A stretch of DNA of 64,000 nt from an uncultured Chitinophaga sp. (GCA_964355075.1 CAYHCF010000002.1:16480-80479); one strand, 5' to 3'. Positions 25,117 through 47,650 are shown, counted from the first letter of the stretch. Translations and numbers: made by a program. The notes: generated by a model not told the origin, from the letters alone.

Positions 25117-25239
25117 TTCAAATTATGAGTTATGAGTTATGAATTTGATTTATTAATGTTTAACGGATAGGTGGAGATTGCATCTGCCCTTCATGGATGA
25201 AAACAATGTTTTAAATATAAAAAAAAATTATTAATTATT

Positions 25240-26544
25240 ATGAGCAAAGGACATCAAGAGGCAATTAAAGAAAATAGCATGGTTATCCAAAAGGAGATGC
25301 TTGCCAAACAATTTAAGGAATTAAGTACTGCGAGTGAACTTGGCAAAAAAGTTGTTTATACTTTTGTTCCGGGAAACCTTACCGAACTTATTCTATCATT
25401 TGACATGCTACCGGTGTACCCCGAGATCAATGCCTTGCAGTCGGGTATGCGAAAAAAATCTGCTGATTATATCCGCGACGCTGAAAAGGTAGGATACTCA
25501 GAAGATGTTTGTACTTACGTAAAATGCGATGTAGGAATGATGTTGAACGGAAATATTGGTCCAACAGGAGAAAAAATTCCGCCACCCGATTTATTATTAT
25601 TGAGCTATACAGGTTGTTTTACTTTTTTAAAATGGTTTGAGAATCTCGAACGCTTGTATCCGGGAGTACCGGTTGCCATGTTGCATACACCCTATCAGGA
25701 AGATGGTAAAATATCTCAGGATCAAATTGACTACATGGTTAAACAAATGAAAGAGGAAGTGATACCAAAAATGGAAATGGTATCCGGGCAGAAATTTGAT
25801 ATGGACCGTCTTTCAAAGATGCTTGTAAATTCAGCAAAAGCTGAAGACTTACTGGTAAAGATTTTAGAGAGTGCAAAACAGGTGCCATCACCTATTGATG
25901 CTTATTTTGCCGGCGTATATTATATAGGCCCGATTTTCACGGCTTTTAGAGGTACCGAAGAAGCTGTAGAATATTATACTGAACTATGGAATGAGGTTCA
26001 GGAAAGAATGAGATTGGGTTTAGGCCCTATTACTCCGGAAGGGGAATTGAAAGAAGAGAAATTCAGGTTGGTTGTTGAAGGACCTCCTAACTGGACTAAT
26101 TTCAGAGAGTTTTGGAAAATATTTTATGATATGGGAGCTGTTATAGTTGCCTCATCCTACACCAAAGTGGGTGGTGTTTACGATCAGGGGTTCAGACATG
26201 ACAGTAAAGAACCGCTTGAAAGTTTAGCAAAATATTGTATGGGGGTTTACACCAATCTGAACCTGCCACAACGTGTGGACATGCTTGAAAAATATGTAAA
26301 AGATTATAAGGCCGACGGTTTTCTTATCAATTCCATAAAAAGCTGCAACTCCTTCTCTGCAGGCCAATTAATGATTATGAGAGAGATTGAACAGAGGGCT
26401 GGAGTGCCTGTTGGATTTATCGAATCTGATTTGGTTGACCCCAGGTACTTTTCCTATGCCAATATTAAGAATAGATTAGAATCGTATTTCCAGATGTTGG
26501 GTCAGCGGAAAATCATAATAAAACAGGTAGAAGCAGAAGTGTAA
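25240..26544 (+). CDS. bcrB: Benzoyl-CoA reductase (class I) subunit B-like protein
   Basis: 434 aa BCR/HAD-family protein (VVYTFVPGNLTELILSFDMLPVYPE..., CTYVKCD). Second position in the four-gene set; size close to BcrB/BadE. Confidence 0.6.
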   Translation: MSKGHQEAIKENSMVIQKEMLAKQFKELSTASELGKKVVYTFVPGNLTELILSFDMLPVYPEINALQSGMRKKSADYIRDAEKVGYSEDVCTYVKCDVGMMLNGNIGPTGEKIPPPDLLLLSYTGCFTFLKWFENLERLYPGVPVAMLHTPYQEDGKISQDQIDYMVKQMKEEVIPKMEMVSGQKFDMDRLSKMLVNSAKAEDLLVKILESAKQVPSPIDAYFAGVYYIGPIFTAFRGTEEAVEYYTELWNEVQERMRLGLGPITPEGELKEEKFRLVVEGPPNWTNFREFWKIFYDMGAVIVASSYTKVGGVYDQGFRHDSKEPLESLAKYCMGVYTNLNLPQRVDMLEKYVKDYKADGFLINSIKSCNSFSAGQLMIMREIEQRAGVPVGFIESDLVDPRYFSYANIKNRLESYFQMLGQRKIIIKQVEAEV

Positions 26545-26712
26545 TTGGTAATCGGTAATTGGTAATTGGTAATTGGTAATTGGTAATCGGTAATTGGTCC
26601 CTTCGACAAGCTCAGGATGACAAATTTTGTTGTCATAGTGAGCCTGTCGAACTACGGTAATTGGTATTTGGTAATCGGTAATTGGTAATCGGTAATTGGT
26701 AATTGGTAATTG
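26541..26712. repeat. Composite repeat: 8 x GTAATYG heptamers, a 50-nt imperfect palindromic core, then 8 x GTAATYG heptamers
   Basis: Heptamer arrays at 26541-26596 and 26657-26712 lie in direct orientation. The core hairpin has arms 26602-26623 and 26630-26651 (22-nt arms, 3 mismatches). The first heptamer overlaps the bcrB-like stop codon. Confidence 0.9.
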
Positions 26713-26750
26713 GTTTAAAAAAAATAAATTAGCATATAAAATAGAATTAA

Positions 26751-28166
26751 ATGAATAAATATTATCTTGGAGTTGATCTTGGCTCCACAACATCAAAGGC
26801 GGTTATCATAAACGATCAGGATGAAATTATTGGTCGTGGAATTACCAATACCCGCGCCAACTACTCGGTGGCGGCAGATATAGCCAGGGAAGAAGCGATT
26901 TATAACGCTCGTTTTTCCATACTCAAAAAAAATCTTGAAAAAGATATGGAATCGAATCCCGAGTACAGAAAGTATATTTCAGATCTGGAAAGTGTTTTTC
27001 AATATGAACAATTCAAAGTTCGGATTGATAAGTTGGGCGAGGAGCTGGTAAAAACCTGTAATAGTTACCTGTCGGGAGACAAGAAAGATCTCATGCTGGA
27101 GAATTTAAGAAATATCAGAAAAGTAATTAAGCCAAAAATAAAACATGCGTATATTTTCGGTGATCTGGGTTCCAAAAATCAGTTTTTCAGGGATATCGTT
27201 TCAGAGCTTTACAACGAAGAAGTAAACAAGCTCGACAGTTCATTATTTGAACCTTTAATGACTATTTGGGATAAAAGTATCAGTCCGGCCGAGAATCAGG
27301 CTGTTGAATTCAACTTCTTTGAATTGATCCAGAAGGCAATGGAATTGCTTAGAGAAAAATATGAAAACCTTCCTGATAATCTCGAAGATGAAAGCATCAA
27401 TTTTGATGCTGAATTAAATTTATTAAAAGGCAAGTTTTATAATGTTAGCGATTCCTTACGCGAGCACATTCATAATATTGCCAGGATTGAATTTAATATT
27501 ACCAATATGACCGGAACGGGCTATGGTCGTGCACTACTTCCATTTCCTCAGGAATGTATCCGTTCTGAAATTTTATGTCATGCTTTTGGTGCCCACGCAA
27601 TTTTTCCTGAAACCCGAACGGTTTTAGACATAGGTGGTCAGGATACCAAAGCAATTCAGGTTGATAAATACGGATTGGTTACCAGTTTCCAGATGAACGA
27701 CAGATGTGCTGCAGGTTGTGGAAGGTACTTAGGTTATATCGCCGATGAGATGAGCATATCTTTAAACGAATTAGGACCCATGGCGATGAAAGCAGAAAAG
27801 GAAGTAGTGATTTGTTCTACCTGTACTGTTTTTGCCGGAGCTGAATTAAGGGAACTTACCAATCTTGGTGAGAAACGAGAGGACATTCTGGGCGGCTTAC
27901 ACAAGGCCATTATTATGCGGGCAATGTCGCTGATTGCCCGTTCAGGTGGTGTATTTAACGAATTTACTTTTACCGGAGGGGTTGCGAGAAATCAGGCGGT
28001 GATTAAGTACCTTACCCAATTAGTAAGAGAAAATTACGGAAATGATATTGTAATAAATATTCACACCGATTCAATTTTTATGGGAGCATTGGGAGGAGCC
28101 ATGTTTGCAAGAAGGAACATGGTTGCTGATTTACCAACTACAAAAAAAACAAAAGAATTAGCATAA
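26751..28166 (+). CDS. bcrA: Benzoyl-CoA reductase subunit A-like ATPase (BcrAD/BadFG family, with insertion)
   Basis: 471 aa. YLGVDLGSTTSKAV (phosphate 1), LDIGGQDTKAI, MNDRCAAGCGRYL and CSTCTVFAGAE (cluster-bridging Cys positions). An insert of about 170 aa follows the first strand region, as in BcrA/BadF-type subunits. Confidence 0.65.
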   Translation: MNKYYLGVDLGSTTSKAVIINDQDEIIGRGITNTRANYSVAADIAREEAIYNARFSILKKNLEKDMESNPEYRKYISDLESVFQYEQFKVRIDKLGEELVKTCNSYLSGDKKDLMLENLRNIRKVIKPKIKHAYIFGDLGSKNQFFRDIVSELYNEEVNKLDSSLFEPLMTIWDKSISPAENQAVEFNFFELIQKAMELLREKYENLPDNLEDESINFDAELNLLKGKFYNVSDSLREHIHNIARIEFNITNMTGTGYGRALLPFPQECIRSEILCHAFGAHAIFPETRTVLDIGGQDTKAIQVDKYGLVTSFQMNDRCAAGCGRYLGYIADEMSISLNELGPMAMKAEKEVVICSTCTVFAGAELRELTNLGEKREDILGGLHKAIIMRAMSLIARSGGVFNEFTFTGGVARNQAVIKYLTQLVRENYGNDIVINIHTDSIFMGALGGAMFARRNMVADLPTTKKTKELA

Positions 28167-28182
28167 AAATAAATAATAATAA

Positions 28183-29022
28183 ATGATGGAAAATTTTTAT
28201 ACAATGGGGATCGATGTGGGTTCTAATTTTATCAAACTTGTATTGGTAGATTACTCCAATAATCCTCAAATAATTGACAAGCACACTGAAAAGATCAGAA
28301 AGCGCAATCCTTCAGTTGTGGCTGAAGAATTGATTCAGGGGATGTTGACGAAAAACAATCTTCAATATGAAGACATTGCATATCTGGCTTCAACCGGTGA
28401 AGGAGATTTGGTAAAACGCAAACGAGGACATTTTTATGGAATGACCACACATGCCAAAGGAGCACACTATTTCTTTCCGGATGCCATTACCGTAGTGGAT
28501 ATGGGAGCGCTATATGTAAGAGCCATTAAAATGACGACAGATGCCCGCGTTCAGGATTATAAGATGACCGGTCAGTGCGCCTCCGGATCGGGACAATTTG
28601 TTGAAAACATTTCGCGCTATCTGGGACTGTCTATTGAAGAAGTAGGAGGTGTTTCCCTGCAAGCTGAAGCTCCCGAATTATCTTCCGGGATTTGTGCAGT
28701 ATTGGCTGAAACTGATGTAATCAATATGGTTTCAAGAGGAATTAAAACACCAAATATTATCAAAGGAATTCACCTCTCCATAGCCAGCAGAATCATTAAA
28801 CTACTAAGCTCCCTCAAGGCAGAATCTCCGATCGTTATTACCGGGGGGATGTCGTTGAATAGTGGCATGATACAGGCCATTGAAGAACAATTACTGGAAA
28901 CCGGGAAAAAATATGTTATCAAAACGCATCCCGACGCCATTTATGCAGGCGCAATCGGTGCGGCTTTGTGGGGAGGATTCAGGCATATTAAATTGAAGGA
29001 AAAGCAAGCTGAACTGGTATAA
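28183..29022 (+). CDS. bcrD: Benzoyl-CoA reductase subunit D-like ATPase (BcrAD/BadFG family)
   Basis: 279 aa. MGIDVGSNFIKLV, TGQCASGSGQFVEN, GICAVLAETDVIN and ITGGMSLN. Last gene of the C-B-A-D order. Confidence 0.65.
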   Translation: MMENFYTMGIDVGSNFIKLVLVDYSNNPQIIDKHTEKIRKRNPSVVAEELIQGMLTKNNLQYEDIAYLASTGEGDLVKRKRGHFYGMTTHAKGAHYFFPDAITVVDMGALYVRAIKMTTDARVQDYKMTGQCASGSGQFVENISRYLGLSIEEVGGVSLQAEAPELSSGICAVLAETDVINMVSRGIKTPNIIKGIHLSIASRIIKLLSSLKAESPIVITGGMSLNSGMIQAIEEQLLETGKKYVIKTHPDAIYAGAIGAALWGGFRHIKLKEKQAELV

Positions 29023-29157: not shown

Positions 29158-31290
29158 ATGGATTATCAGGGTGAGACAGAAAGTATTGGATCCATTGGAA
29201 TTGAAAACGAATTGGATTCCTTGTTTAAGCCAAAGTCTATTGCAATTATCGGGGCTTCATCAAAAGAACTATCTATCGGAAATGTTATCATTAAAAATCT
29301 GATTCATTTCGGGTTTACAGGAAAAATATTTCCGATTAATCCTAAGGAACCTGAAATTAGGGGAATTAAAGCTTATCCCTCTATATTGGACGTGGAAGAA
29401 AGCATTGATTTGGCGCATATCATTATTCCTTCCAAATTTGTTCCACAAATCATTGAAGAATGTGGTAAAAAGGGTGTTAAATCTGTTATCATAAACTCTG
29501 CAGGATTTAGTGAAATGGGCGAAGAAGGCATGGCACTTCAAAAAGCATTTCTAAGCAAAGCAAAAGAATATGGCATCAGGGTATTTGGCCCAAATTGCCA
29601 GGGGATTATCAATACAGATCCTGTGTATAAAGCCTATTGCGATTTCACCTTTACTTTTCCTGAACCGGGCTCTGTATCGATTGTTGCATTGAGCGGAGGT
29701 GTAGGAGCATTCATTATGCAAAGTTTGTTCGACCTTGAAATTGGAATGCGTTATTATGCCTCCAATGGAAATGCTTGTGATATCTCAATTTCGGAGGTTT
29801 TAGAATATTATGGCAATGATGAAGCTACCAAAGCAATCATTCTATATACCGAAGGATTTAAAAATCCAAGAGAATTCATGGAAGTAGCAAAGACTGTTGC
29901 AAAGAAAAAACCCATACTCGCAATGAAATCAGGCAGAACCGAAGAAGGGGCACAGGCTGCAGCTTCTCATACAGGTTCACTTGCCGGAGTTGATATTTCA
30001 ACTGAATTGATTTTTGAAAAAACAGGAATACTATCCTTTACGAACGAAGAAGAAATGTGTCAGGCAGCAAAAGCATTTTCTTCTCAACCCATTCCAAAAG
30101 GTAACCGGGTTGGTATTATTACCAATACAGGAGGTCCGGCTGTTATTGCCACTGATGAATTGGTAAATTCAGGTATGCATATCCCTCCCCTTTCTGAAAA
30201 AGCAAAAACCATATTACAACAAACTCTTTTGCCTGAAGCCAGTATAGGAAATCCAATTGATGTTGTGGCAACGGGTGGAGGAATTCATTTCAGAAGTGCT
30301 TTAGATGTAATGATGGATGAAGAACAAATTGATTCAGTTTTCATCAATTTTGTAACTGCCCCCTTTACGGATACAAATGAGGTTGCCAGAAATATTGTAG
30401 CAGTAAACCAACAAAAGAGAAAACCCATCATCTGCAATTTTATGACCAATATGAGTCTGGAGCGTTTTCAGGAAACTGCAAAAATTCTCAAAGATGGCGG
30501 AGTTCCCTGCTATAGCTTTCCAACCACCGCAGCCAAGGCTCTCGGGGCATTATATAAATACCATCAATTGCAATCCAGGTATATTGGTGTTCCAAAATAT
30601 TTTAATGATGTAAATAAAACAAAAGCAGATTCCATTTTGAACCAGGTAAACGTTACAGGAGAATTCCTTTCAAGTAGTCACGCATATGAATTGCTTTCAG
30701 CTTATGGGATTCCGGTTGCGGATTGGTGTATAGCTCATACGGTTGATGAGGCTATTACAGGTGCCAGAGAAATCGGATACCCTGTTGTAATCAAAGCGGA
30801 AACAAAATCATTGATACACAAAAGTGATCAGGGTGGCGTGGCAATTAATCTGATCAATGAAGAAGAGGTTCGATATGTAATTGAAAAGATGCAAGAGCAG
30901 TTTTTGGACAATGATTTGAAGTTTTTTGTTCAGAAATTTCTTCCCGGAGTGAAAGAATTAGTTGTGGGTGTGAGCGGACAAAGAGATTTGGAGCACCTGA
31001 TTATGTTTGGTTTGGGGGGGATTTATGTTGAAGTATTGAAAGATGTTGTATTCAAACTTTCTCCAATTACCGAATTGGAAGCGAATGAAATGATTTCATC
31101 GGTAAAAGCAGCAAAATTACTGGAAGGGGTAAGAGGGAAAAGTGGAATTGACAAGCGGAGTGTAATTGACATTATTCTTCGTATTTCTCAATTGGTAAAT
31201 GATTTCCCTCAAATAAAAGAAATGGATCTGAACCCGATTATGGCATTTGAGGACTGCGCGTATGTTGTGGATGCGAGGATTATGGTATAG
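29158..31290 (+). CDS. ADP-forming (NDP-forming) acyl-CoA synthetase, fused alpha-beta type
   Basis: 710 aa. CoA-binding Rossmann (IAIIGAS...GN), succinyl-CoA-synthetase-like ligase domain with phosphohistidine motif AASHTGSLAG, and a C-terminal ATP-grasp domain. Confidence 0.8.
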   Translation: MDYQGETESIGSIGIENELDSLFKPKSIAIIGASSKELSIGNVIIKNLIHFGFTGKIFPINPKEPEIRGIKAYPSILDVEESIDLAHIIIPSKFVPQIIEECGKKGVKSVIINSAGFSEMGEEGMALQKAFLSKAKEYGIRVFGPNCQGIINTDPVYKAYCDFTFTFPEPGSVSIVALSGGVGAFIMQSLFDLEIGMRYYASNGNACDISISEVLEYYGNDEATKAIILYTEGFKNPREFMEVAKTVAKKKPILAMKSGRTEEGAQAAASHTGSLAGVDISTELIFEKTGILSFTNEEEMCQAAKAFSSQPIPKGNRVGIITNTGGPAVIATDELVNSGMHIPPLSEKAKTILQQTLLPEASIGNPIDVVATGGGIHFRSALDVMMDEEQIDSVFINFVTAPFTDTNEVARNIVAVNQQKRKPIICNFMTNMSLERFQETAKILKDGGVPCYSFPTTAAKALGALYKYHQLQSRYIGVPKYFNDVNKTKADSILNQVNVTGEFLSSSHAYELLSAYGIPVADWCIAHTVDEAITGAREIGYPVVIKAETKSLIHKSDQGGVAINLINEEEVRYVIEKMQEQFLDNDLKFFVQKFLPGVKELVVGVSGQRDLEHLIMFGLGGIYVEVLKDVVFKLSPITELEANEMISSVKAAKLLEGVRGKSGIDKRSVIDIILRISQLVNDFPQIKEMDLNPIMAFEDCAYVVDARIMV

Positions 31291-31339: not shown

Positions 31340-32560
31340 ATGTATAAAATTCAAACAAGCAAATTAATGAAGGAAATAATGGCAAATTATTTCCTGGGAA
31401 TGAAAGATCCATCAAAAAAAATTGCATGGTGTACGAGTGTTGGCCCTGCTGAACTATTACGCTCATTTGGTTTTGAGGTTCATTTTCCTGAAAATCACGG
31501 TGCCTTATTGGGAGCTACCCGAACGGCGAATGATTTGATTCCTGAATCAGCCATTTTGGGATATTCCAATGATATTTGCTCTTATTTAACTGCAGATATC
31601 GGTTCCTACTTAACCAAACAGACTCCATTAAAAGAGCACTATGGATTAAATGGACCCCCAAGACCTGACCTGATTGTATATAATACCAATCAATGCCGCG
31701 AGGTACAGGATTGGTTCACTTATTTTGCAAGAGAGTTGAATTGCCCGATATTTGGCATTAACCCACCCAGACATGTAACGGAAGTAACACAGGAGGAGAT
31801 TGAAGATGTTGCCTCTCAATTCAAAGCTATGATACCTGTATGTGAAAAGGCAAGCGGCTTAAAATTTGATATCGACCGATTTAGGGAAGTGTTAAAATTA
31901 AGCAAGGAAGCAACCGATTTATGGAAGAAGGTATTGAATACAGCCACTATTTCTCCTGCTCCCATCAGCTTTTTTGATGCCACCATACATATGGGACCCA
32001 TCGTGGTTTTAAGGGGAACAGAGATTGCGAAAGTATATTACGAAACGCTCCTGAGTGAATTAGAAGAAAACGTAAAAAAAGGAATGGGATTTTTAGAAAA
32101 AGAAAAGTCTCGTATATACTGGGATGGGATGCCCATCTGGGGTAAATTGAGATCCTTGTCTGATTTATTTATTCAAAATAATTCGGCAGTGGTAGCTTCC
32201 ACTTATTGTAACAGCTGGATATTTGATGCATTTGATGAAAGAAATCCTTTTGAGTCATCTGCAAAAGCGTATACTGAGATATTTATTAATAGAAGCGAAG
32301 AAGCCAAGCAGAAAATACTCAGTAATCTCGTTCACGATTTCCACGTGGATGGAATGATATTCCATGATGCCAAAACATGCTCTAATAACTCGAACTCAAG
32401 ATTTGGAATGCCTCAGCGAATATCGGAAACACTTGGAATTCCAACCCTGGTCATTGAGGGTGATTTGTGCGATTTGCGATTTTATTCGGAAGGTCAGAGT
32501 GTCACTAAAATTGAAACATTTATTGAGCAGATCGAAAGCTCAAACGTATTCAGTCAATAG
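31340..32560 (+). CDS. Stand-alone 2-hydroxyacyl-CoA dehydratase/BCR-family (D-component-like) protein
   Basis: 406 aa. Family-typical N-terminus (KKIAWCTSVGPAELLRSFGFEVHFPENH). 8 Cys, including WCTS, ICSY, QCRE, YCNS, TCSN and LCDL. No partner subunit gene is adjacent. Confidence 0.7.
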   Translation: MYKIQTSKLMKEIMANYFLGMKDPSKKIAWCTSVGPAELLRSFGFEVHFPENHGALLGATRTANDLIPESAILGYSNDICSYLTADIGSYLTKQTPLKEHYGLNGPPRPDLIVYNTNQCREVQDWFTYFARELNCPIFGINPPRHVTEVTQEEIEDVASQFKAMIPVCEKASGLKFDIDRFREVLKLSKEATDLWKKVLNTATISPAPISFFDATIHMGPIVVLRGTEIAKVYYETLLSELEENVKKGMGFLEKEKSRIYWDGMPIWGKLRSLSDLFIQNNSAVVASTYCNSWIFDAFDERNPFESSAKAYTEIFINRSEEAKQKILSNLVHDFHVDGMIFHDAKTCSNNSNSRFGMPQRISETLGIPTLVIEGDLCDLRFYSEGQSVTKIETFIEQIESSNVFSQ

Positions 32561-32575
32561 AATATTTACCTTAAT

Positions 32576-33049
32576 ATGGTTCTTATGAAAAATGATGATT
32601 TTCAGGAAAAGCAGGTATTCAAACTTTCAACAGGAGAAAAGGTAAACAATGCCGAAATTGAAAAACTTATTGAAAATACCTGTCATTATGTAAAGTTTGT
32701 GACGTTGAGTGATGGAGAAAATGAAAACCATGTTGCTTTAATTTTTCCAAACATAGAATTGCTGAACAATCCGAATTATAAATTAACCCCTGACGAAGGC
32801 TGCTTTTGTCCCCGAAACCTTACAGAACTCGGGAGGTGTTTGTCCGGTTGTATGAATAATGTTAACAAGCAACTGGAACCAGGTTCAGGAACAATTATTT
32901 CTACCCGCATCTTGAATGAGGATAAAAATAAAGCAGAATCATACCAGACTCCTGAAAACATAAACAAAACACTCAAAACTTTTCTAAAGGATTTGATTGA
33001 TGATGTTGATACCTCTGAAAATGAAACATACTATATCCCATCCTTGTAA
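32576..33049 (+). CDS. Hypothetical small Cys-rich protein
   Basis: 157 aa with CFCPRN...GRCLSGC. The N-terminal half (STGEKVNNAEIEKLIE...HVALIFPNIELL) loosely resembles the C-terminal subdomain of AMP-forming long-chain acyl-CoA synthetases. Compactly packed between neighbours on the same strand. Confidence 0.35.
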   Translation: MVLMKNDDFQEKQVFKLSTGEKVNNAEIEKLIENTCHYVKFVTLSDGENENHVALIFPNIELLNNPNYKLTPDEGCFCPRNLTELGRCLSGCMNNVNKQLEPGSGTIISTRILNEDKNKAESYQTPENINKTLKTFLKDLIDDVDTSENETYYIPSL

Positions 33050-33091
33050 TTAATAATCCAAAACAATCTTGAATGATATAACCAAAATAAA

Positions 33092-34942
33092 ATGATGGAA
33101 AAATCAGAAAAACTAAAAGTCGGAGTGGTAGGATTAGGTCCTGTTGGAATGATTCTGGCAGTCAAATTAAAAGAGGCTGACTGCGAAGTTTCGATATGCG
33201 ATAAAGATGATTTTAAACTTAAAAAAATAAGAGAAAGCGGTATTGTATTAGAAAATGCCATTGAATCGAGTACCCGTTTCGAACGGATTTTTGATTCGAT
33301 TGTGGATATGAGATCTCAGGATCTTGATTACCTCATTTTCGCTTTAAAATCTTATCAAACAATAGGAGCTGTTAAAGAGGCTGAGTTATTAAATACAGAA
33401 AAACTCACTTTGGTTTCGGCTCAAAATGGGATAGATGTAGAACAGCTAATTACGGCAACTTTTGGCGAATCCAAAACGCTGCGCATGATTGTAAATTTTG
33501 CCGGAAATATGAAATCCGCAAATACAGTAAAGGTTTCTTTTGTAAATCCTCCAAATTATTTAGGTTCGGTTGATGACAGCAGAACAAAGGAAGCGATTAT
33601 TCTTGCTGAAACTTTGAATAAAGTTGGATTCAGAACTGAAAAATTAGATTCTTTTGACCTGGTAAAAAGCATTTGGCAGAAAACAATTTTAAATGCATCT
33701 TTAAGTGCTTTATGCGGTGTGGGCAGGTTAACTATGGCTGAGGCTATGGCTGATAATGATACAATGGAACTCGTTGAACAAATCATGAATGAGGGAATTG
33801 AGGTTGCCGAAAAGGAGAAGATTCGTTTTGCAGATGATTTTGTTAGAAAATGCATGCAATATCTTAAAAAGGGGGGCGACCATTTTCCCTCATTATCTGT
33901 TGACTTAATAAATAACCGGCCCACCGAAATAGATTTTTTTAATGGAAAAATTGTTGAATATGGCAAAAAGCATTATGTAAAAACTTCTCTAAACCTGGCA
34001 TTTACAAATATGGTGAAGGCCATGACCAATAAAAATGTATTAAACCGGTTTCCCGGTATTGATGAAGAATTATATAAAAAAATTATCAATAAAGGAATGA
34101 TTGAAAAGAGTCGTTCCACTATTTATTATAAAGAACATGATTGCTTCCTTGGAATTGACTTAGGATCGGCATTTACCAAGTTTAATATTATTGATGGGAA
34201 CTCCAATCCCGTGTTCAGGTATATTTTACCTACCATGAACAAAGACCGGAATGCCATGAAAAATGTTCTGAAATCAATTTATGCTTCCTTCCAGATTAAA
34301 CATAGTTGCGCAACCGGTTATGGCAGGAAACATTTTACAGAAACAGATATTATAAAAACAGAAATAAACTGTGCGGCTGTTGGGGTGGGTGAATTTTTCC
34401 AGGGAGAGAAAAATATCATTGATATTGGAGGAGAAGATATTAAGATCATTCATACCAATCAAGAGAATTTTGTTGCAAATTTTTACATGAACGACAAATG
34501 TGCTGCAGGTACCGGCGCTTTTCTGGAAGAAATTTCGGAGAGAGCAGAAATAAATAACGGCGAAATGAGTAGTCTGGCAGCACATTCGTCATTTGATAAA
34601 GAGTTAAATAGTTTCTGTACGGTATTTGCTAAAACCGAGATCATGAGTTGGGTATTTGAAGGCATGATGAAACAAGACATTGCAAGAGGAATCTATATTT
34701 CAATCGCCAATAAAGTAGCGAAAATGAAACTATTCCCAAATATTCCTACTTATTTAATCGGAGGCGTGGTAGCCCATCATCCCTATCTTGGAAATATTTT
34801 AAGCGAAAAATTCCATAAAGAAATACACGCGCTCGACAATCCCCAATATATTGTTGCACACGGTGCTGCTATTTTGGCTAAAGAAAACTGGCTTTTAAAC
34901 AATCCTAAAGAATTCATTATTTCAGAATCCATAACAAATTAA
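33092..34942 (+). CDS. Fusion protein: ketopantoate reductase (ApbA/PanE)-like NAD(P)-binding oxidoreductase plus HgdC/BcrAD-type activase ATPase
   Basis: The N-terminal region of about 320 aa has VGVVGLGPVGMILAVKL (Rossmann) and a PanE-like C-terminal helical part (...TEIDFFNGKIV). The C-terminal region of about 270 aa has FLGIDLGSAFTKF, DIGGEDIKII, MNDKCAAGTGAFLEE and SFCTVFAKTE. Confidence 0.7.
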   Translation: MMEKSEKLKVGVVGLGPVGMILAVKLKEADCEVSICDKDDFKLKKIRESGIVLENAIESSTRFERIFDSIVDMRSQDLDYLIFALKSYQTIGAVKEAELLNTEKLTLVSAQNGIDVEQLITATFGESKTLRMIVNFAGNMKSANTVKVSFVNPPNYLGSVDDSRTKEAIILAETLNKVGFRTEKLDSFDLVKSIWQKTILNASLSALCGVGRLTMAEAMADNDTMELVEQIMNEGIEVAEKEKIRFADDFVRKCMQYLKKGGDHFPSLSVDLINNRPTEIDFFNGKIVEYGKKHYVKTSLNLAFTNMVKAMTNKNVLNRFPGIDEELYKKIINKGMIEKSRSTIYYKEHDCFLGIDLGSAFTKFNIIDGNSNPVFRYILPTMNKDRNAMKNVLKSIYASFQIKHSCATGYGRKHFTETDIIKTEINCAAVGVGEFFQGEKNIIDIGGEDIKIIHTNQENFVANFYMNDKCAAGTGAFLEEISERAEINNGEMSSLAAHSSFDKELNSFCTVFAKTEIMSWVFEGMMKQDIARGIYISIANKVAKMKLFPNIPTYLIGGVVAHHPYLGNILSEKFHKEIHALDNPQYIVAHGAAILAKENWLLNNPKEFIISESITN

Positions 34943-34944
34943 TT

Positions 34945-36207
34945 ATGAAATCCTATCACGATAAAGACAAAGGTATTGCCATTTCATTTGACGATATCTA
35001 TTTAGTAAACGGAGTAAGAACTCCTTTTGGAAAATTTTGCGGAACCTTGGCAAATGTATCTCCTACAGATTTGGGGATATTCGCGTCAAAGGCTGCATTA
35101 AAAAAATCGGGAATTGAGCCTGACGATATTGATCAGGCCATTATAGCGAATATCGGACAAGCCTCTGGCGATGCCTATTTTCTTCCAAGGCATATCTCCT
35201 TATTTGCCGGGTTACGTATGACCGTTCCCTCATTAATGGTGCAGAGAATCTGTGCTTCAGGATTTGAAACACTCATTACTGCCGCCGAACAGATTACTTT
35301 AAATAAAGCAGGATCTGTTTTATGTTGTGGAACCGAAAACATGTCGCTTGCACCCACCGTAAGCTTTGGAAACCGGATGGGTTATGCTCTGGGAAGACCT
35401 GTTTTTAAAGATATGTTGTGGGAAGCTTTAGATGATACCGCTGCCGGATATCCAATGGGGTTTACGGCAGAAAATGTTGCCAAAAAACATCAAATCACCC
35501 GGGAACAATGCGATGAATTTGCATACCTGTCCTTTCAAAGAGCTTTGAATGCACAAAATAAGGAAATCTTTAAAGATGAAATTACTCCCATTAATTCAAC
35601 CGTGTTTGAAATAGAAGGGTTGAAACCAAGAAAGGTTCGTTTACCGGGTGGTGTTAAAAATTTTATAACGGATGAACAGATTCGCGATACTTCCATTGAA
35701 TCTCTAGCAAAATTACCAACCGTATTTTCTGAAGTTGGTGTTTTAACCCCGGGAAATTGCAGCGGTATCGTTGATGGAGCGGGTGCAGCTGTGGTTGCTG
35801 ATGCGAATACGGTTAAATCGAAGAATTTGAAACCCATCGCAAAAATTGTAGCTGCTGCCAGTTGCGGTATTGACCCAAAAATAATGGGATTGGCTCCTGT
35901 ACCTGCCATTCAGTTACTTCTCGAATTTACCGGATTAAAGATAGAGGATATCGGTTTGTTTGAAATAAATGAAGCATTTTCAGCACAGTTGATTGGTTGT
36001 GAAATCGAACTTGGACTAGACCGGGATAAACTAAATGTGAATGGGGGTGCCATCGCAATCGGGCATCCTTTGGCAGCATCGGGATTAAGACTTTCCTTAA
36101 CCATTATCCGTGAAATGAATTTGAGAAACATTAAATACGGAATTGCATCAGCTTGTATTGGAGGCGGACAAGGAACCGCGATTTTATTTGAAAATATTAA
36201 TCTATAA
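34945..36207 (+). CDS. Acetyl-CoA C-acyltransferase (thiolase)
   Basis: 420 aa. VQRICASGFE (active Cys), NEAFSAQ, NVNGGAIAIGHPLAASG and ACIGGGQGTA. Confidence 0.9.
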   Translation: MKSYHDKDKGIAISFDDIYLVNGVRTPFGKFCGTLANVSPTDLGIFASKAALKKSGIEPDDIDQAIIANIGQASGDAYFLPRHISLFAGLRMTVPSLMVQRICASGFETLITAAEQITLNKAGSVLCCGTENMSLAPTVSFGNRMGYALGRPVFKDMLWEALDDTAAGYPMGFTAENVAKKHQITREQCDEFAYLSFQRALNAQNKEIFKDEITPINSTVFEIEGLKPRKVRLPGGVKNFITDEQIRDTSIESLAKLPTVFSEVGVLTPGNCSGIVDGAGAAVVADANTVKSKNLKPIAKIVAAASCGIDPKIMGLAPVPAIQLLLEFTGLKIEDIGLFEINEAFSAQLIGCEIELGLDRDKLNVNGGAIAIGHPLAASGLRLSLTIIREMNLRNIKYGIASACIGGGQGTAILFENINL

Positions 36208-36210
36208 TAA

Positions 36211-37275
36211 ATGGAACAAAATAAAATGTATCAGTGGCAAATGACTGAATTGGATAAGCCATTTGTTTTATCGGAGAGTGTATTGCCTGAAACAAAATCA
36301 GGAGAGGCTCTGGTAAAAATAGCCGGTTGCGGAGTGTGTCATACCGATATCAGCTTTTGGCATCATGGTGTTCAAACCAAACATGCTTTACCCTTAACAC
36401 TCGGACACGAAATAAGCGGAACTGTAATTGCAGGTGACGAAAAATGGATTGGCAAAAAGGTGATTATTCCCGCTGTTCTTCCCTGTGGAGAATGTGAGCT
36501 ATGTTTGACCGGCAGGAGTAATATTTGCAGAAGTCAATTAATGCCCGGAAACGATTTTGACGGAGGTTTTGCTTCCCACATAAAAGTACCTTCCAGATAT
36601 TTATGCGAGGTTCCGGATAAAGTTTTGGAAAAATATTCGCTTGAACAGTTATCTGTTATCGCTGATGCTATTTCAACTCCTTACCAGGTGGTAAAGAAAT
36701 CGGAACTGGTTGCCGGAGATTTTGCAATTGTGATCGGTGTGGGTGGAGTTGGTATTTATGGGGCGCAGATCGCAAAAATATTTGGAGCAAAAGTTTTAGC
36801 CCTTGATATAAGTGATGAGAAATTAGAAATTGCCAAGCAAAATGGCGTTGATGCCACGCTCAACACAAAAGGACTCGACTTTAAAACCATCAAAGAGAAA
36901 GTGAAGGAGATTGCCAAAGAAATAAAGGCTCCAAAATATGGTTGGAAAATATTAGAAATTTCCGGAACCAAAGCCGGACAAGACCTGGCTTTTAACCTGA
37001 TTACTTTTGCCTCAACCCTTTCTATTGTTGGTTTTACGATGGATAAAGTGGAAGTTCGCTTAAGTAACCTGATGGCCTATGATGCAAAATTAATCGGAAC
37101 CTGGGGATGCAAACCTGAATTATATCCCGAGGTAGTTGAACTGGTGGCACAAGACAAACTAAAAATTGATCCCTTCATCGAAACTTTTCCAATGTCACTG
37201 ATTAATGAAGTTTTTAAAAATACGCTCGAACATAAATATACCAAAAGATCTGTTTTAATACCTGACTTTAATTAA
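36211..37275 (+). CDS. had: Zn-dependent alcohol dehydrogenase family; candidate 6-hydroxycyclohex-1-ene-1-carbonyl-CoA dehydrogenase
   Basis: 354 aa MDR. GCGVCHTD, GHEISG and the structural Zn site CGECELCLTGRSNIC. Position is immediately upstream of the Oah/BamA-like and Dch-like genes. The family call is firm; the substrate call is contextual. Confidence 0.55.
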   Translation: MEQNKMYQWQMTELDKPFVLSESVLPETKSGEALVKIAGCGVCHTDISFWHHGVQTKHALPLTLGHEISGTVIAGDEKWIGKKVIIPAVLPCGECELCLTGRSNICRSQLMPGNDFDGGFASHIKVPSRYLCEVPDKVLEKYSLEQLSVIADAISTPYQVVKKSELVAGDFAIVIGVGGVGIYGAQIAKIFGAKVLALDISDEKLEIAKQNGVDATLNTKGLDFKTIKEKVKEIAKEIKAPKYGWKILEISGTKAGQDLAFNLITFASTLSIVGFTMDKVEVRLSNLMAYDAKLIGTWGCKPELYPEVVELVAQDKLKIDPFIETFPMSLINEVFKNTLEHKYTKRSVLIPDFN

Positions 37276-37284
37276 ATTAAAAAA

Positions 37285-38385
37285 ATGGAAGAATTAAAAA
37301 ATCACAATATAGTTGATGTAAACTATAAAGAAATCATTTTCGAAAAACGTCCTTGCCTGGATAAGGATGGAACACCGGTTGATAAATTATTCAATGCCTG
37401 GATCATTATCAATAATCCAAAACAATTTAATTCGTACACTACGGCTGCCATAAAGGAATTAATACTTGCATTTCGGCAGGCTTCAAATGACCGAAGTGTT
37501 GTTGCTGTTGTTCTGACTTCGGTTGGTGATAAAGCATTTTGTACCGGTGGAAACACCAAAGAATATGCAGAATACTATGCAGGAAATCCCCAGGAATATT
37601 CACAATACATGCGTTTATTCAATGATATGGTTTCAACTATTCTGATGTGTGAAAAACCGGTTATCTGCCGTGTAAACGGAATGAGAATTGGCGGCGGTCA
37701 GGAAATTGGAATGGCTTGCGATTTTAGCGTTGCAAGTGATATGGCCAGATTTGGACAAGCAGGGCCAAAACATGGCAGTGCGGCTATAGGCGGAGCCACC
37801 GACTTTCTACCGCTATACGTTGGAGTTGAACGCGCTATGATGTCGTTAACCTTGTGTGAGCCATGGACAGCACATCAGGCTTATTATTATGGGGTTATTA
37901 CTGATATCGCTCCGGTTTTAAAAGCAGATGGGAAATTTATTGCCAATCCTTTGGTTCAAACAGAAAAAATAATGGACGAATATGGCAAGATTTCTTTTGG
38001 AACCATGAAAACAGGTGATGAACTCGCCAAAGCAAAGGAAATTGTTTCCAAATGTGAGACTGATTTAAGCATGCTGGATAAGGCCGTGAATAGCCTGATT
38101 TCAAAAATATTGCATACCTTCCCTAATTGTATGAGTAAAACCATCAGTGAGGTTCGCAAGTTTAAATTGGAACATTGGGATAAAAATAAAGAAGGAAGCC
38201 GCGAATGGCTGGCTTTAAATATGATGAGCGAAGCAAAAGCAGGATTCAAAGCATTTAATGATGGGCCTAAAGATAACAGGGAAGTTAATTTTATTTTATT
38301 AAGGCAATTACTTGCTGAAGGTCATGAGTGGAATGAGGAATTACATCATGCTATTTCACCGCAGTATCAGGCGTCAAATAATTAG
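37285..38385 (+). CDS. oah: Long crotonase-family protein; candidate 6-oxocyclohex-1-ene-1-carbonyl-CoA hydrolase (ring-cleaving, BamA/Oah)
   Basis: 366 aa, about 100 aa longer than ordinary enoyl-CoA hydratases. VGDKAFCTGGN and CRVNGMRIGGGQEIGMACDF resemble the Oah/BamA core as I recall it. Flanked by had-like and dch-like genes. Confidence 0.6.
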   Translation: MEELKNHNIVDVNYKEIIFEKRPCLDKDGTPVDKLFNAWIIINNPKQFNSYTTAAIKELILAFRQASNDRSVVAVVLTSVGDKAFCTGGNTKEYAEYYAGNPQEYSQYMRLFNDMVSTILMCEKPVICRVNGMRIGGGQEIGMACDFSVASDMARFGQAGPKHGSAAIGGATDFLPLYVGVERAMMSLTLCEPWTAHQAYYYGVITDIAPVLKADGKFIANPLVQTEKIMDEYGKISFGTMKTGDELAKAKEIVSKCETDLSMLDKAVNSLISKILHTFPNCMSKTISEVRKFKLEHWDKNKEGSREWLALNMMSEAKAGFKAFNDGPKDNREVNFILLRQLLAEGHEWNEELHHAISPQYQASNN

Positions 38386-38387
38386 AT

Positions 38388-39161
38388 ATGGAAAAAATAC
38401 AGGTAACATATTTATACGAAGATTCAGTTGTACGTATTCTGTTAAATGATGGTAAAGGTAATGTGCTCGACCACATCATGATGGAGGAATTGCAGGCAGT
38501 TTTGAATTCTTTTAGCACCGCCAATCAATTAAAGTTGATCATTTTTGAGGGTTCCGGGAAACATTTTTCATTTGGAGCCAGTGTGGAAGAGCATCAAAAA
38601 GATATGGCAGGAGCCATGCTTTCGTCGTTTCACAAATTATTTTATACGCTGCGTGATTTATCCATTCCAACTCTTGCAAAAATTACAGGACAATGCCTCG
38701 GAGGTGGAATGGAACTTGCCATCATGTGCAATTTTCTTTTTGCGGATCAAACTGCAAAATTTGGGCAACCCGAAATTATTCTGGGTGTATTCCCCCCTCC
38801 GGCATCAATTATTTTATCAGAAAAAATTGGTCTGGCCAGGGCAGAAGAATTGATAATTACCGGAAAAACGATAGGTGCTGAAGAAGCAAAAAACAGTGGT
38901 TTACTGAATTATTTATTTGAGGACAAAGCTGCTCTTGAAACCGGAACAAATGAATGGATAGAGCAGAATATCCTTCCAAAAAGTGCGTCTTCACTCAGAT
39001 TTGCCAACAAAGCAGTAAGACTAAAATTCAACCATTTACTTTCAAACTTCTTACCCCAGTTAGAACAATTGTACGTTAACAGTTTAATGGAAACAAATGA
39101 TGCCAATGAAGGGATCTGTTCATTTTTAGAAAAAAGAAAACCTCTTTGGAAAAATAATTAA
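38388..39161 (+). CDS. dch: Crotonase-family protein; candidate cyclohexa-1,5-diene-1-carbonyl-CoA hydratase
   Basis: 257 aa. KGNVLD...GSGKHFSFGASVEEH...GQCLGGGMELA. Context next to oah-like/had-like and bcr-like genes. Confidence 0.55.
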   Translation: MEKIQVTYLYEDSVVRILLNDGKGNVLDHIMMEELQAVLNSFSTANQLKLIIFEGSGKHFSFGASVEEHQKDMAGAMLSSFHKLFYTLRDLSIPTLAKITGQCLGGGMELAIMCNFLFADQTAKFGQPEIILGVFPPPASIILSEKIGLARAEELIITGKTIGAEEAKNSGLLNYLFEDKAALETGTNEWIEQNILPKSASSLRFANKAVRLKFNHLLSNFLPQLEQLYVNSLMETNDANEGICSFLEKRKPLWKNN

Positions 39162-39171
39162 CCTTAATACT

Positions 39172-41169
39172 ATGGAATCGTTAAAAACAGTTGGTGTTGT
39201 GGGAGCAGGTACGATGGGTTCAGCCCTCACTCAGAAATTTGCCCAGGAAGGATTTAAGGTTATTCTGGCAGACAGGACAATCAGCTTTGTAGACAGAGGA
39301 ATTAATGGCATAAAATCGAGTTTACAGGAAGGAATTCAAAAAAAGGTTTTTACAGAAGAACAAGCTGGTAAAACCCTCAGCAATATTTCCGGCACAGAAA
39401 ATCTGGAAGACTTAAAAGCTTGTGATATTGTTATTGAAGCCATATTTGAAAATTTTGATGCAAAAATTGATTTGTTTAAAAACCTATCAAATGTGTTATC
39501 CGATACTTGTATCATCGCAACCAATACTTCTTCTTTTTCAGTTAATGAATTAAGTGAATATGTAAAAAATCCTGAACGCTTTATTGGCTTGCATTATTTT
39601 TACCATGCGGCAAAAAATCGTCTGGTGGAAATTATCCCGAACAAAAAAACTTCTGCAGGTGTTATCGAAAGTGCCCGGCGTTTTTCGTTTATTTCAGGGA
39701 AAGATGCCATTTATTGTAAGGATTCCTACGGTTTTGTGGTAAACCGTTATTTTGTTCCCTGGTTGAATGAAGCTTGCAGGCTTCTGGAAGAAAATATTGG
39801 AAATATTCCTACCATTGATTCCGTTTGTTCAGAAAAATTTGGTGTAAGCATGGGTCCATTTGCATTAATGAATGCCACCGGAGTTCCCATTACCTATCAT
39901 TCCCAAAAAACACTTGAAGTATTTGGTGAACTCTATAAAACCTCAGAAATATTAAGGATTCAAACTGAATTAAACCAGCCATGGAGCCTTGAAGGAGAAG
40001 TATTGGCTGATGATGTGATCAGAAAAGAAATAGCGGAGCGGATGATCGGAATTGAATTTTTGGTATGTTCACAATTGCTTGAAGAAGAAACCTGCTCAGC
40101 CACCGAAATAAATCGTGGTGCCCGCATCGGTTTAAAATGGAGATCCGGCCCCATTGAATTAATGAGTAGATATGGCGAGGCAGAGACTCAAAGATTCGTA
40201 TCTTTAATAGCTAAAAGATACAATACCCCTGTTCCAGCTACGGTGGATTCAAGTTTCTGGAAACAAGCGTATGTATTATATGAAAAATGGGGTAAAAATG
40301 TTACCCTTACCATGTCGAGACCTGAAGATCTGAACGCACTTAATGAAGAGGTAATCAAACAACTTTTGGAAAAATTTACCATAGCTGATACAGATCCTGA
40401 AGTTGAAAATATCTTTTTGGTTGGTTCCGGAAAAGCCTTTGTTGCCGGCGCCGATATTAAATTTTTTGTTAAACACATGAAGGCGCTTTCCTTCGATAAA
40501 ATTGAAACCTTTACCCGATTCGGTCAGGACGTACTTGAAAGGATTGACCAATCAAACAAAAAGGTTATTGTTATTTTAAATGGAATGGCCTTAGGTGGAG
40601 GCTTAGAGCTGGCATTATGTGCCGACCTGATTGTGGCACTTCCAGGTGCAACTATGTCATTCCCGGAAACCGGTATTGGAATCTATCCGGGTTTGGGAGG
40701 AACACAGAGAAGCGCAAGAAGAATTGATAAAGCATTGAGTAAATACATGATTCATACCGGAAAGACATTAAGTGCAAAAGATGCTTTTGAAATTGGATTA
40801 GTAGATAAGGTCATTTCTGTTGAAGAAATGTTCGATTTGATTTATGGAAATATGGAATTACCTGCTCCTAATAAACCTGTCCTGAATGAAAAATGGCTCG
40901 CCATCAAGAATTTTTTCGAGGATCATAAGCTCGCTGAATTGCTCTCGCATCAGATTCACGATACACTGATTTCTAAAGAAGAAGCGGATCGCATTTGTAA
41001 AACATTGGCATTTAAAGCGCCTCTTGCTTTGCAATATGCCGACAAATTAATTGAAGATGCAAAAGGCTGCGCAGATGAATTGAATTATTTAACCAAAATT
41101 TTCAGCACGCAGGACGCATTGCTGGGATTGACTTCAATTGGAAAGCGGGTTGAATTTAAAGGGCACTAG
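39172..41169 (+). CDS. Bifunctional 3-hydroxyacyl-CoA dehydrogenase (N-terminal) / enoyl-CoA hydratase (C-terminal)
   Basis: 665 aa. VGVVGAGTMGSALTQ Rossmann and 3HCDH C-domains, then a crotonase fold (GSGKAFVAGADIKFF, LGGGLELALCAD, ETGIGIYPGLGGTQR). Confidence 0.85.
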   Translation: MESLKTVGVVGAGTMGSALTQKFAQEGFKVILADRTISFVDRGINGIKSSLQEGIQKKVFTEEQAGKTLSNISGTENLEDLKACDIVIEAIFENFDAKIDLFKNLSNVLSDTCIIATNTSSFSVNELSEYVKNPERFIGLHYFYHAAKNRLVEIIPNKKTSAGVIESARRFSFISGKDAIYCKDSYGFVVNRYFVPWLNEACRLLEENIGNIPTIDSVCSEKFGVSMGPFALMNATGVPITYHSQKTLEVFGELYKTSEILRIQTELNQPWSLEGEVLADDVIRKEIAERMIGIEFLVCSQLLEEETCSATEINRGARIGLKWRSGPIELMSRYGEAETQRFVSLIAKRYNTPVPATVDSSFWKQAYVLYEKWGKNVTLTMSRPEDLNALNEEVIKQLLEKFTIADTDPEVENIFLVGSGKAFVAGADIKFFVKHMKALSFDKIETFTRFGQDVLERIDQSNKKVIVILNGMALGGGLELALCADLIVALPGATMSFPETGIGIYPGLGGTQRSARRIDKALSKYMIHTGKTLSAKDAFEIGLVDKVISVEEMFDLIYGNMELPAPNKPVLNEKWLAIKNFFEDHKLAELLSHQIHDTLISKEEADRICKTLAFKAPLALQYADKLIEDAKGCADELNYLTKIFSTQDALLGLTSIGKRVEFKGH

Positions 41170-42619: not shown

Positions 42620-43234
42620 ATGGAACCTCAGGATAAATATAAGGTTATTGTTCTCATGGCGGGTAAATCATCAAGGTTTGGACAGCCTAAGGCTTTTTTA
42701 CCATTTAATAAAGACAGGAACTTTATACAAAACCTCCTCTTCCAATACAGGGAAGCAGGTATTGAGGAAATTATTTTGGTTACTAATGTATCCGTACTTA
42801 AAGAACTGGAAAAACAATTACAGGAAAATTTGTTTGATGGCTCTTTAAAAATTGTTATCAATCCTGAACCCGAATCGGATCGGTTTTTCAGTCTGAAGCT
42901 GGCCTTGAAAAATATGGATATCTGCTGTTCTGCCTTTATCCAAAATATTGATAACCCATTTATATCTTCTGAATTAATCAGTAAGATGAGAAATAAAATC
43001 AAACCCGGGAAATACGTTGTACCAAGCTTTCTAGGCAAAAAGGGTCATCCGGTTTTATTATCAAAAGAGATCCTTCAATACCTCTCAACAATAATGTCTG
43101 ACAGTGAAAACCTGAAAGAAATTTTGGCTGAATTTGCATTTGAAGAAGTATTTGTTGATGATGAAAGCGTTCTGGCTAATATCAACACAAAAGAAGATTA
43201 TTTCAACTATTTCAACTATGCAATCCCTGTTTGA
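42620..43234 (+). CDS. mocA: MobA-like nucleotidyltransferase, probable molybdenum cofactor cytidylyltransferase
   Basis: 204 aa. VIVLMAGKSSRFGQPKAFLPF (NTP_transf_3 motif). Context next to xdhC and Mo-hydroxylase genes. Confidence 0.65.
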   Translation: MEPQDKYKVIVLMAGKSSRFGQPKAFLPFNKDRNFIQNLLFQYREAGIEEIILVTNVSVLKELEKQLQENLFDGSLKIVINPEPESDRFFSLKLALKNMDICCSAFIQNIDNPFISSELISKMRNKIKPGKYVVPSFLGKKGHPVLLSKEILQYLSTIMSDSENLKEILAEFAFEEVFVDDESVLANINTKEDYFNYFNYAIPV

Positions 43235-47639: not shown

Positions 47640-47650
47640 GGGGTAATAAA

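Follow-up and report, generated by a model that had tools for sequence, protein, structure and literature searches.

The 2-hydroxyacyl-CoA dehydratases characterised so far are all alpha-beta heterodimers in which the cluster of the beta subunit stores the electron, and in reviews their component D is treated as obligatorily alpha-beta heterodimeric (PMC11574389). The double-cubane cluster protein DCCP and its reductase DCCP-R form a system of a single subunit with its own activase (PMC9351452). In BzdO, a subunit of benzoyl-CoA reductase (BCR), the [4Fe-4S] cluster is held by C95, C128 and C380, and it was proposed that catalytic [4Fe-4S] sites arose by the loss of one cubane (PMC11971306). 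Here we describe a module found in a stretch of 64,000 nucleotides from an uncultured Chitinophaga sp. (GCA_964355075.1 CAYHCF010000002.1:16480-80479, hereafter the window), in which a single D-type gene, HGDD, is followed by a small Cys-rich open reading frame (ORF) and by a gene for a PanE::activase fusion. Judged by sequence, it represents a widespread, uncharacterised dehydratase/BCR-family system that lacks a beta subunit and carries an unusual pair of Cys. The three ORFs lie on the + strand exactly where an earlier note on this DNA had placed them. Its description of the module as an orphan was wrong, as bcrCBAD is found directly upstream and genes for thiolase, Had, Oah, Dch and HADH directly downstream.

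By analogy, the parts of the module would repeat the logic of known 2-hydroxyacyl-CoA dehydratase clusters, which consists of a dehydrogenase, a CoA activation, the dehydratase and its activator, each accessory being apparently replaced by an analogue and the dehydratase being cut to one subunit. HGDD shares with the HadBC/HadI/LdhA/HadA system of Clostridioides difficile (3O3M, 4EHT), to which the phenyllactate system FldABC/FldI/FldH is related, the fold of the alpha subunit (about 30% identity), three Cys ligands, the glutamate of the PEN motif and an ATP-dependent activator of its own that carries two cluster Cys; the functions of an (R)-2-hydroxyacid dehydrogenase and of CoA activation are encoded nearby in both, as predictions in the present case. 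The differences are as numerous: there is no beta subunit, the dehydrogenase belongs to the ketopantoate-reductase family and not to the D-2-hydroxyacid-dehydrogenase family and is fused to the activase (in relatives, to the dehydratase), an ADP- or AMP-forming CoA ligase replaces the CoA-transferase, HGDD has the extra C31 and C290 (plus C377), and the setting is an oxidative benzoyl-CoA operon instead of a fermentative one. We tentatively favour, with a confidence that stops a little short of even, the reading that the module makes up a whole 2-hydroxyacyl-CoA dehydratase route whose accessories have been replaced, and that this route probably acts on aryl-pyruvate/aryl-lactate, its enoyl-CoA product being shortened to (4-hydroxy)benzoyl-CoA. 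HGDD would most likely work in it without a beta subunit, presumably as a homodimer. A compact route from a 2-oxoacid to an enoyl-CoA through PanE, the ADP-forming synthetase and the dehydratase was already the second choice of the earlier note, and the evidence given below favours it over the DCCP-like reading.

HGDD (406 aa; 31340..32560, + strand) belongs to the HGD-D family (PF06050, E 7e-62). Among PDB sequences it matched HadB (4e-50), MbdO (2e-37), BzdO (4e-20) and DCCP (8e-7), and no beta-type chain matched it in this search. The AlphaFold2 model was confident (pLDDT 87, pTM 0.88) and, when compared by Foldseek, reached TM-scores of 0.89-0.92 with HadB (3O3M_A/C; root-mean-square deviation 2.3 A), 0.87 with MbdO, 0.87-0.90 with BzdO, 0.73-0.77 with DCCP and 0.71-0.73 with beta chains. 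Given this HadB-like sequence and fold, HGDD is by sequence and predicted fold a catalytic alpha-type subunit. Its invariant E51, in the PEN motif, aligns with the catalytic Glu of BzdO (E65), and C80, C119 and C347, which align with BzdO C95, C128 and C380 and with the Cys of HadB, are the probable ligands of its [4Fe-4S] cluster. The protein is nonetheless the orthologue of no characterised enzyme.

The likeness to BzdO, MbdO and BcrB (8S02, 9G87), which extends to the fold (TM 0.87-0.90), the three Cys, the Glu and a shared operon, suggests another function, namely that HGDD and its activase are a second ATP-dependent, BCR-like aryl-CoA or dienoyl-CoA reductase for substituted benzoyl-CoA. 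HGDD is indeed embedded in a BCR operon, its matches to MbdO (2e-37) and to BcrB (TIGR02260, 160 bits) are strong, and MbdO too has a Cys at the position of C31, but we consider this function very improbable. Both curated models fall short of their cut-offs (TIGR02260, 160 bits vs 487; TIGR03191, 81 bits vs 449). The BCR-specific His131 of BzdO, a proton/H-atom relay, is replaced by an invariant Val122 and Trp46 by a Gly, and HGDD has no electron-storage subunit of the N/C type, that is, no BzdN/BcrC-type partner of its own. The activase is of the homodimer type, unlike the BcrA/D heterodimer of class I BCR, the association with PanE would have no role in ring reduction, and the module is also present without any BCR as well as with class II BCR. 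A literature search on MbdO found nothing relevant.

The claim of the earlier note that a single D-type subunit is served by a dedicated activase is robust, as it held in 73/80 loci and in the class-II-BCR, four-gene and fusion arrangements described below. A genome scan with the fusion protein gave 143 relatives, and 80 loci, from metagenome-assembled genomes (MAGs) of Bacteroidota, Ignavibacteria and Chlorobiota, were kept for neighbourhood counts, with a view of about 20 kb around each homologue. The association of genes is seen directly at these loci: HGDD is located directly upstream of the fusion gene in 73/80, bcrA and bcrD are upstream of the module in 56/80, and a thiolase is the next downstream gene in 57/80. 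One HGDD-type gene is present per locus in 75/80, a second one adjoins the first in none of the 80, and no gene for a partner beta subunit was found in any inspected locus. Two loci (L053, L055) depart from the usual order, with the fusion and the thiolase and neither HGDD nor bcr genes in the 10 kb upstream.

The same single-gene state extends to more distant relatives. A paralogous family of Bacteroidota and Ignavibacteria (about 55% identity) is found with class II BCR genes and without BcrB/C (L082, L084), the class II genes of L084 encoding BamB-like aldehyde:ferredoxin oxidoreductase (AFOR), Fer4 and CCG proteins; these clusters are ordered ADP-forming synthetase, free PanE, Had, Oah, Dch, HGDD, free activase, thiolase and HADH. 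On several metagenome contigs (L087, L090, L092, L093, L095, L096), PanE, activase, HGDD and the ADP-forming synthetase form a four-gene unit with no BCR nearby, in which the synthetase directly adjoins HGDD. An exhaustive search of the representative library revealed PanE fused directly to HGD-D in other lineages (P0122, P0127, P0149), and a Myxococcota MAG (L081) encodes such a PanE::HGDD fusion, followed by a free activase and by an HcrC/HcrB/HcrA-like set. A partner gene for HGDD was likewise not found with class II BCR, beside the four-gene units or where PanE is fused to HGD-D. The constant core is thus PanE, an activase, one HGDD and a CoA ligase. In two of the fusions (P0127, P0149) the HGD-D domain has lost all three [4Fe-4S] Cys (S/G/S-T), and these proteins could be cluster-less partners or pseudo-subunits. 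Three metagenome contigs (L086, L089, L094) harbor two HGDD and activase pairs about 9 kb apart, with aldehyde dehydrogenases, an SCPx-type thiolase and HADH between them, and the locus of the closest metagenome relative (L085) of the divergent member P0126 had an uninformative neighbourhood.

These neighbourhoods also bear on whether HGDD truly lacks a beta subunit, since it might borrow the BcrC of the operon or find its beta subunit at an unlinked locus. bcrC is only 6 kb upstream in the same operon, and the view was limited to about 20 kb around each homologue. We nevertheless give this explanation the slimmest chance of those considered here, as the sister family stays single-gene next to class II BCR, where BcrB/C are missing (L082, L084), the single-gene state recurs in the BCR-free four-gene units, and in L081 the PanE::HGDD fusion has the activase alone next door. 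In the window, the operon encodes three HGD-D proteins, two of which pass the curated BcrC and BcrB cut-offs, which leaves HGDD without a dedicated partner.

HGDD is preceded by a gene for an ADP-forming acyl-CoA synthetase (ACD, 710 aa; 29158..31290, + strand) with the Pfam domains CoA_binding, Succ_CoA_lig and ATP-grasp_5, whose best NCBIfam matches are ADP-forming CoA ligases, all below their cut-offs. In 37/80 loci the same position is held by an AMP-forming ligase of about 580 aa, and because of this replacement the step encoded there appears to be the activation of an acid. A ligase in place of the CoA-transferase of fermenters would make sense because an oxidative pathway keeps its thioester.

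The small ORF (157 aa; 32576..33049, + strand), whose likely true start is M4 at 32585, has only a sub-threshold match to AMP-binding_C_3 in Pfam. It is homologous to the C-terminal domain of the AMP-forming ligase (39% identity, E 4e-34, with residues ~420-570 of the 585-aa ligase of locus L023) and seems to be a selected, free-standing copy of this domain that has lost the A10 lysine motif. C36-H37-Y38, G75-C76-F77-C78-P79, C88 and C92 (C-H-Y ... G-C-F-C-P ... C-x3-C) are invariant. The ORF is present in 26/27 ACD loci and in 0/37 AMP-ligase loci. The possibility of a decaying remnant was rejected on account of the ratio of nonsynonymous to synonymous substitutions (dN/dS 0.04-0.21, indicating purifying selection), of the invariance of five Cys and one His and of the strict complementarity with the AMP-ligase. 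Since the Cys-rich domain is retained with either ligase, the small ORF would have a role of its own, perhaps in metal binding or docking; its AlphaFold2 model was poor (pLDDT 52, 29 homologues). In one locus (L062), a 181-aa remnant with similarity to the ligase's C-terminal domain is located between bcrD and ACD rather than after HGDD, and looks like an intermediate in the replacement of the AMP-ligase by ACD.

The fusion protein (616 aa; 33092..34942, + strand) combines ApbA and ApbA_C domains (residues 10-311) with a BcrAD_BadFG domain (residues 353-596). Its PanE domain (33092..34051, + strand, about residues 1-320; ApbA, ApbA_C) passes TIGR00745 (156 bits vs a cut-off of 141), and all PanE equivalog models stay below their cut-offs on it. 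At least 97% of 79 orthologues retain its NAD(P) and catalytic motifs (GxGPVG, QNGI, W.KTILN, HFPSL..D....R.TEI...NG). The nearest structures, 2EW2, 8WL1 and 3WFI, are all deposited as 2-dehydropantoate 2-reductase; they share the catalytic Lys/Asn/Ser/Asp/Glu motifs with the PanE domain at about 25-30% identity and differ in that the latter is fused to an Fe-S ATPase. The domain thus looks active by its motifs. We take 3WFI to be a D-mandelate dehydrogenase and the Lactococcus PanE to be a D-2-hydroxyacid dehydrogenase. No link between a ketopantoate reductase and a dehydratase was found in the literature.

The activase ('archerase') domain (34139..34942, + strand, about residues 350-616; BcrAD_BadFG 3e-32) passes TIGR00241 with 165 bits vs a cut-off of 125 and is equally close to HadI (6e-35), DCCP-R (9e-33), MbdQ (2e-32) and HgdC (1e-31) of the PDB. 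Its cluster Cys motifs NDKCAAGTG and NSFCTVFA and its phosphate motifs DLGS / GGEDIK are likewise kept in at least 97% of the 79 orthologues. The idea that PanE donates electrons to the activase was rejected by inference, as there is no flavin or Fe-S motif to split the hydride. Just upstream of bcrC, a 1441-aa protein (19375-23700) contains two BcrAD_BadFG ATPase domains and a DUF2229; as a partner of HGDD it was rejected, having no counterpart in the 80 related loci.

In the favoured dehydratase route, the PanE domain would use NAD(P)H to turn a 2-oxo acid into the (R)-2-hydroxy acid, and the acyl-CoA synthetase or ligase encoded upstream would convert the latter to its CoA thioester. The activase domain, presumably dimerised around a bridging [4Fe-4S] cluster in the geometry of DCCP:DCCP-R, would hydrolyse ATP and give one electron to the low-potential [4Fe-4S] cluster of HGDD (C80, C119, C347), which would then dehydrate the 2-hydroxyacyl-CoA through a ketyl radical to the 2-enoyl-CoA. 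Phenylpyruvate/phenyllactate and their 4-hydroxy forms are the favoured substrates. The adjacent hydratase/dehydrogenase and thiolase would trim the resulting cinnamoyl- or 4-coumaroyl-CoA to (4-hydroxy)benzoyl-CoA; the thiolase would have a double role, in this beta-oxidative shortening and for 3-oxopimelyl-CoA, which also needs it. An Hcr-like Mo enzyme would dehydroxylate 4-hydroxybenzoyl-CoA, and BCR, Dch, Had and Oah would then complete the dearomatisation. A recent paper on a benzene degrader advances, as a hypothesis only, a route from phenylpyruvate through phenyllactyl-CoA and cinnamoyl-CoA to benzoyl-CoA (PMC13416013).

What we infer here is which way the flux runs, in which order the steps follow and that the substrate is aromatic, the last because of the link with benzoyl-CoA genes, the Hcr-like sets and the IorAB-like/PaaK-like context. 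Hcr-like sets, made of an HcrC::HcrA fusion, an HcrB-like protein with a Cys-rich loop, XdhC and MocA, all below curated cut-offs, lie beside HGDD modules in the window (42620-48604), in L081 (13019-18157) and in the Bacteroidales cluster L084 (15473-20620), and hence in three contexts: Bacteroidota with class I BCR, Bacteroidales with class II BCR and a Myxococcota MAG. Among the BCR-free units, that of L087 directly follows genes for IorA-IorB-like subunits of a 2-oxoacid:ferredoxin oxidoreductase and for a PaaK-like ligase and has beta-oxidation genes on its flanks. Around the unit of L090 lie genes for a TRAP transporter, an ACT-pair protein, an aryl-type AMP ligase and a Liv-type ABC transporter.

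Several points weigh against this route. A beta-less enzyme of such kind is without precedent, given the heterodimers described at the outset with their electron stored in the beta cluster. The best NCBIfam match of HGDD, the HadB model NF052455, reaches 222 bits vs a cut-off of 750, and clade-specific changes are found near the cluster, at T84 (Arg/Lys in the family), E121, D124, N350 and N352, which, with C31 and C290, could mean a different chemistry. It is also odd that PanE should be fused to the activation of the third step and not to the second if a ligase acts between them, and the BCR pathway might simply have this ligase as its benzoate-CoA ligase. The operon contains no aminotransferase gene, and all carriers are uncultured MAGs.

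The same module could also serve a non-aromatic substrate of the lower benzoyl-CoA pathway, for example by converting 2-oxoglutarate through (R)-2-hydroxyglutaryl-CoA to glutaconyl-CoA, or the reverse. In the reverse variant, which is possible, glutaconyl-CoA would be hydrated, released as 2-hydroxyglutarate with a gain of ATP through the ADP-forming synthetase, and oxidised to 2-oxoglutarate. ADP-forming synthetases commonly operate in the ATP-forming direction, in line with this variant, and the conserved cluster was found to contain no glutaryl-CoA dehydrogenase. The module is moreover kept with both BCR classes, as a step of the core pathway would be, and HGDD is no closer to any aromatic-specific dehydratase among those that could be tested. 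On the other hand, the AMP-forming ligase of 37/80 loci fits the activation of an acid and not the release of CoA, BCR-free units adjoin IorAB-like and PaaK-like genes and transporters of aromatic type, and in Myxococcota the Hcr-like genes alone accompany the module. We regard such a substrate as unlikely, if the least unlikely of the alternatives to the aryl-lactate route.

The six Cys of HGDD (C31, C80, C119, C290, C347, C377) had been read in the earlier note as two groups of three that could ligate a double cubane. Five of them are invariant among 188 orthologues and C377 is kept in 185/188; the conserved cluster motif is thus seen directly. Family profiles were aligned by hhalign to BzdN, whose sequence, like that of DCCP, was rebuilt from printed alignments, the Cys positions reproducing the published ligand numbers. 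C290 aligns exactly with BzdN C263, a ligand of the distal cubane, and R318 with BzdN R290. Strand 1 terminates at C31, one residue short of BzdN C36 / DCCP C76, the loop of the third distal ligand (BzdN C293) is deleted, and C377 follows strand 4' and has no counterpart in DCCP. Known ligands are therefore matched, at C80, C119, C290 and C347 exactly and at C31 with a shift of one, and yet the DCCP set of six ligands within a 7-Cys motif is incomplete. The nearest sister clades (43-55% identity) retain C31 together with C290 and have N, V or S for C377. In the AlphaFold2 model all six Cys are located at strand ends or helix starts and face the cleft between the domains. C31 and C290 border the cavity that accommodates the acyl head in HadB and BzdO. 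The residues that fill the space of the lost cubane, Trp46 in BzdO and Phe in HadB, correspond to an invariant Gly35, HGDD has F, S and N in place of the basic residues at the distal cubane of BzdN (R53, R267, H330), and the acidic, clade-specific E121 and D124 flank the cluster of HGDD. A second or unusual Fe-S sub-cluster, or a redox-active Cys pair, is possible in HGDD on these alignments.

HGDD could accordingly be suspected to be a homodimeric reductase like DCCP, with a double-cubane-type [8Fe-9S] cluster or one in which an Fe site is open, which is reduced by its own ATPase and which reduces its substrate instead of dehydrating it. This is where the double-cubane proposal of the earlier note retains some ground, the system of DCCP and DCCP-R (Carboxydothermus hydrogenoformans; 6ENO, 7YYL) being likewise made of one D-type gene and one dedicated ATPase (PMC9351452) and presumably forming, as HGDD might, a symmetric homodimer:homodimer complex. 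The exact match of C290 to BzdN C263 and of R318 to BzdN R290, the near match of C31, the space opened by Gly35 and the orientation of all six Cys toward the cleft are also in its favour, with Cys standing exactly at four of the six ligand positions and close to a fifth. However, HGDD shares only 18% identity with DCCP, and its fold is closer to the catalytic alpha type (TM about 0.75 with DCCP vs 0.9 with HadB). The model NF040772 (double_cubane) scores 59.8 bits vs a cut-off of 350, with the C-terminal half alone aligning. The deletion of the third distal ligand loop, the shifted C31, the loss of C377 in sister clades that keep C31 and C290, the replacement of the three basic residues and the acidic residues near the cluster all argue against a complete double cubane, and the tight link with a 2-oxoacid reductase and a CoA ligase, enzymes of CoA esters, points to 2-hydroxyacyl-CoA chemistry. 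We thus hold a DCCP-like reductase to be rather improbable.

A bolder and doubtful interpretation would make HGDD a living intermediate between the double-cubane homodimers and the dehydratase/BCR heterodimers, an alpha-type catalytic subunit rid of its beta subunit, in which two or three ancestral Cys of the distal cubane (C31, C290 and, in this lineage, C377) would hold a second Fe-S sub-cluster or form a redox Cys pair storing, within one polypeptide, the electron that is recycled. It would be coupled to a new anaerobic route from Phe/Tyr-derived 2-oxo acids to benzoyl-CoA, widespread in uncultured Bacteroidota, Ignavibacteria and Chlorobiota of anoxic lakes and groundwater. Whatever its exact chemistry, the pair C31/C290, at the positions of double-cubane ligands, makes the proposal of cubane loss (PMC11971306) directly testable. 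If the beta-less enzyme is active, mechanistic models with an electron stored in the beta cluster would need to be revisited, and a simpler two-protein system would become available for the study and engineering of ketyl-radical dehydration. The clade is large, the fusion by itself giving 143 genome matches, next to thousands of metagenome proteins, and it is tied to benzoyl-CoA operons of both BCR classes in Bacteroidota that abound in freshwater and groundwater. It may thus point to an anaerobic sink, so far unrecognised, for aromatic amino acids or phenylpropanoids.

The remaining genes of the operon, all on the + strand, are co-directional and tightly packed in the window. Gaps of 15-49 bp surround the three ORFs, and the thiolase gene starts 2 bp past the stop of the fusion gene. 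Directly upstream of the module, bcrC, bcrB, bcrA and bcrD (23953..29022) encode a class I BCR; BcrC and BcrB are above the curated cut-offs of TIGR02263 and TIGR02260, respectively, the best match of BcrD is just under its cut-off (310.6 vs 312.85) and that of BcrA well under (443.5 vs 578). Downstream are the thiolase (34945..36207), above the cut-off of TIGR01930, and genes for Had, Oah, a Dch-like protein and a bifunctional 3-hydroxyacyl-CoA dehydrogenase/enoyl-CoA hydratase (36211..41169), assigned from NCBIfam and FadB-like domains; Had and Oah are above the cut-offs of TIGR03201 and TIGR03200, and TIGR03189 is a best match below its cut-off. These are followed by MocA-like, XdhC-like, short-chain dehydrogenase/reductase (SDR), HcrC::HcrA-like and HcrB-like genes (42620..48604), for which TIGR03194, TIGR03193 and TIGR03195 are the best matches, all sub-cut-off; the region represents a 4-hydroxybenzoyl-CoA-reductase-like Mo enzyme set plus maturation genes. 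Promoter, terminator and Rfam scans gave nothing over background. The bcrC of the window (23953-25116) is of the Thauera type and has no Cys at the position of BzdN C36; the Cys spacing of its product is unlike the six-ligand set of BzdN, and the protein resembles MbdN (E 1.8e-60). The intergenic region between bcrB and bcrA contains eight copies of the heptamer GTAATTG, twice (26541-26598 and 26656-26714), and 11.6 copies of ACGATTT (46880-46960) are in frame in the HcrC::HcrA-like gene, where they encode repeats of the TIDDLRL type.

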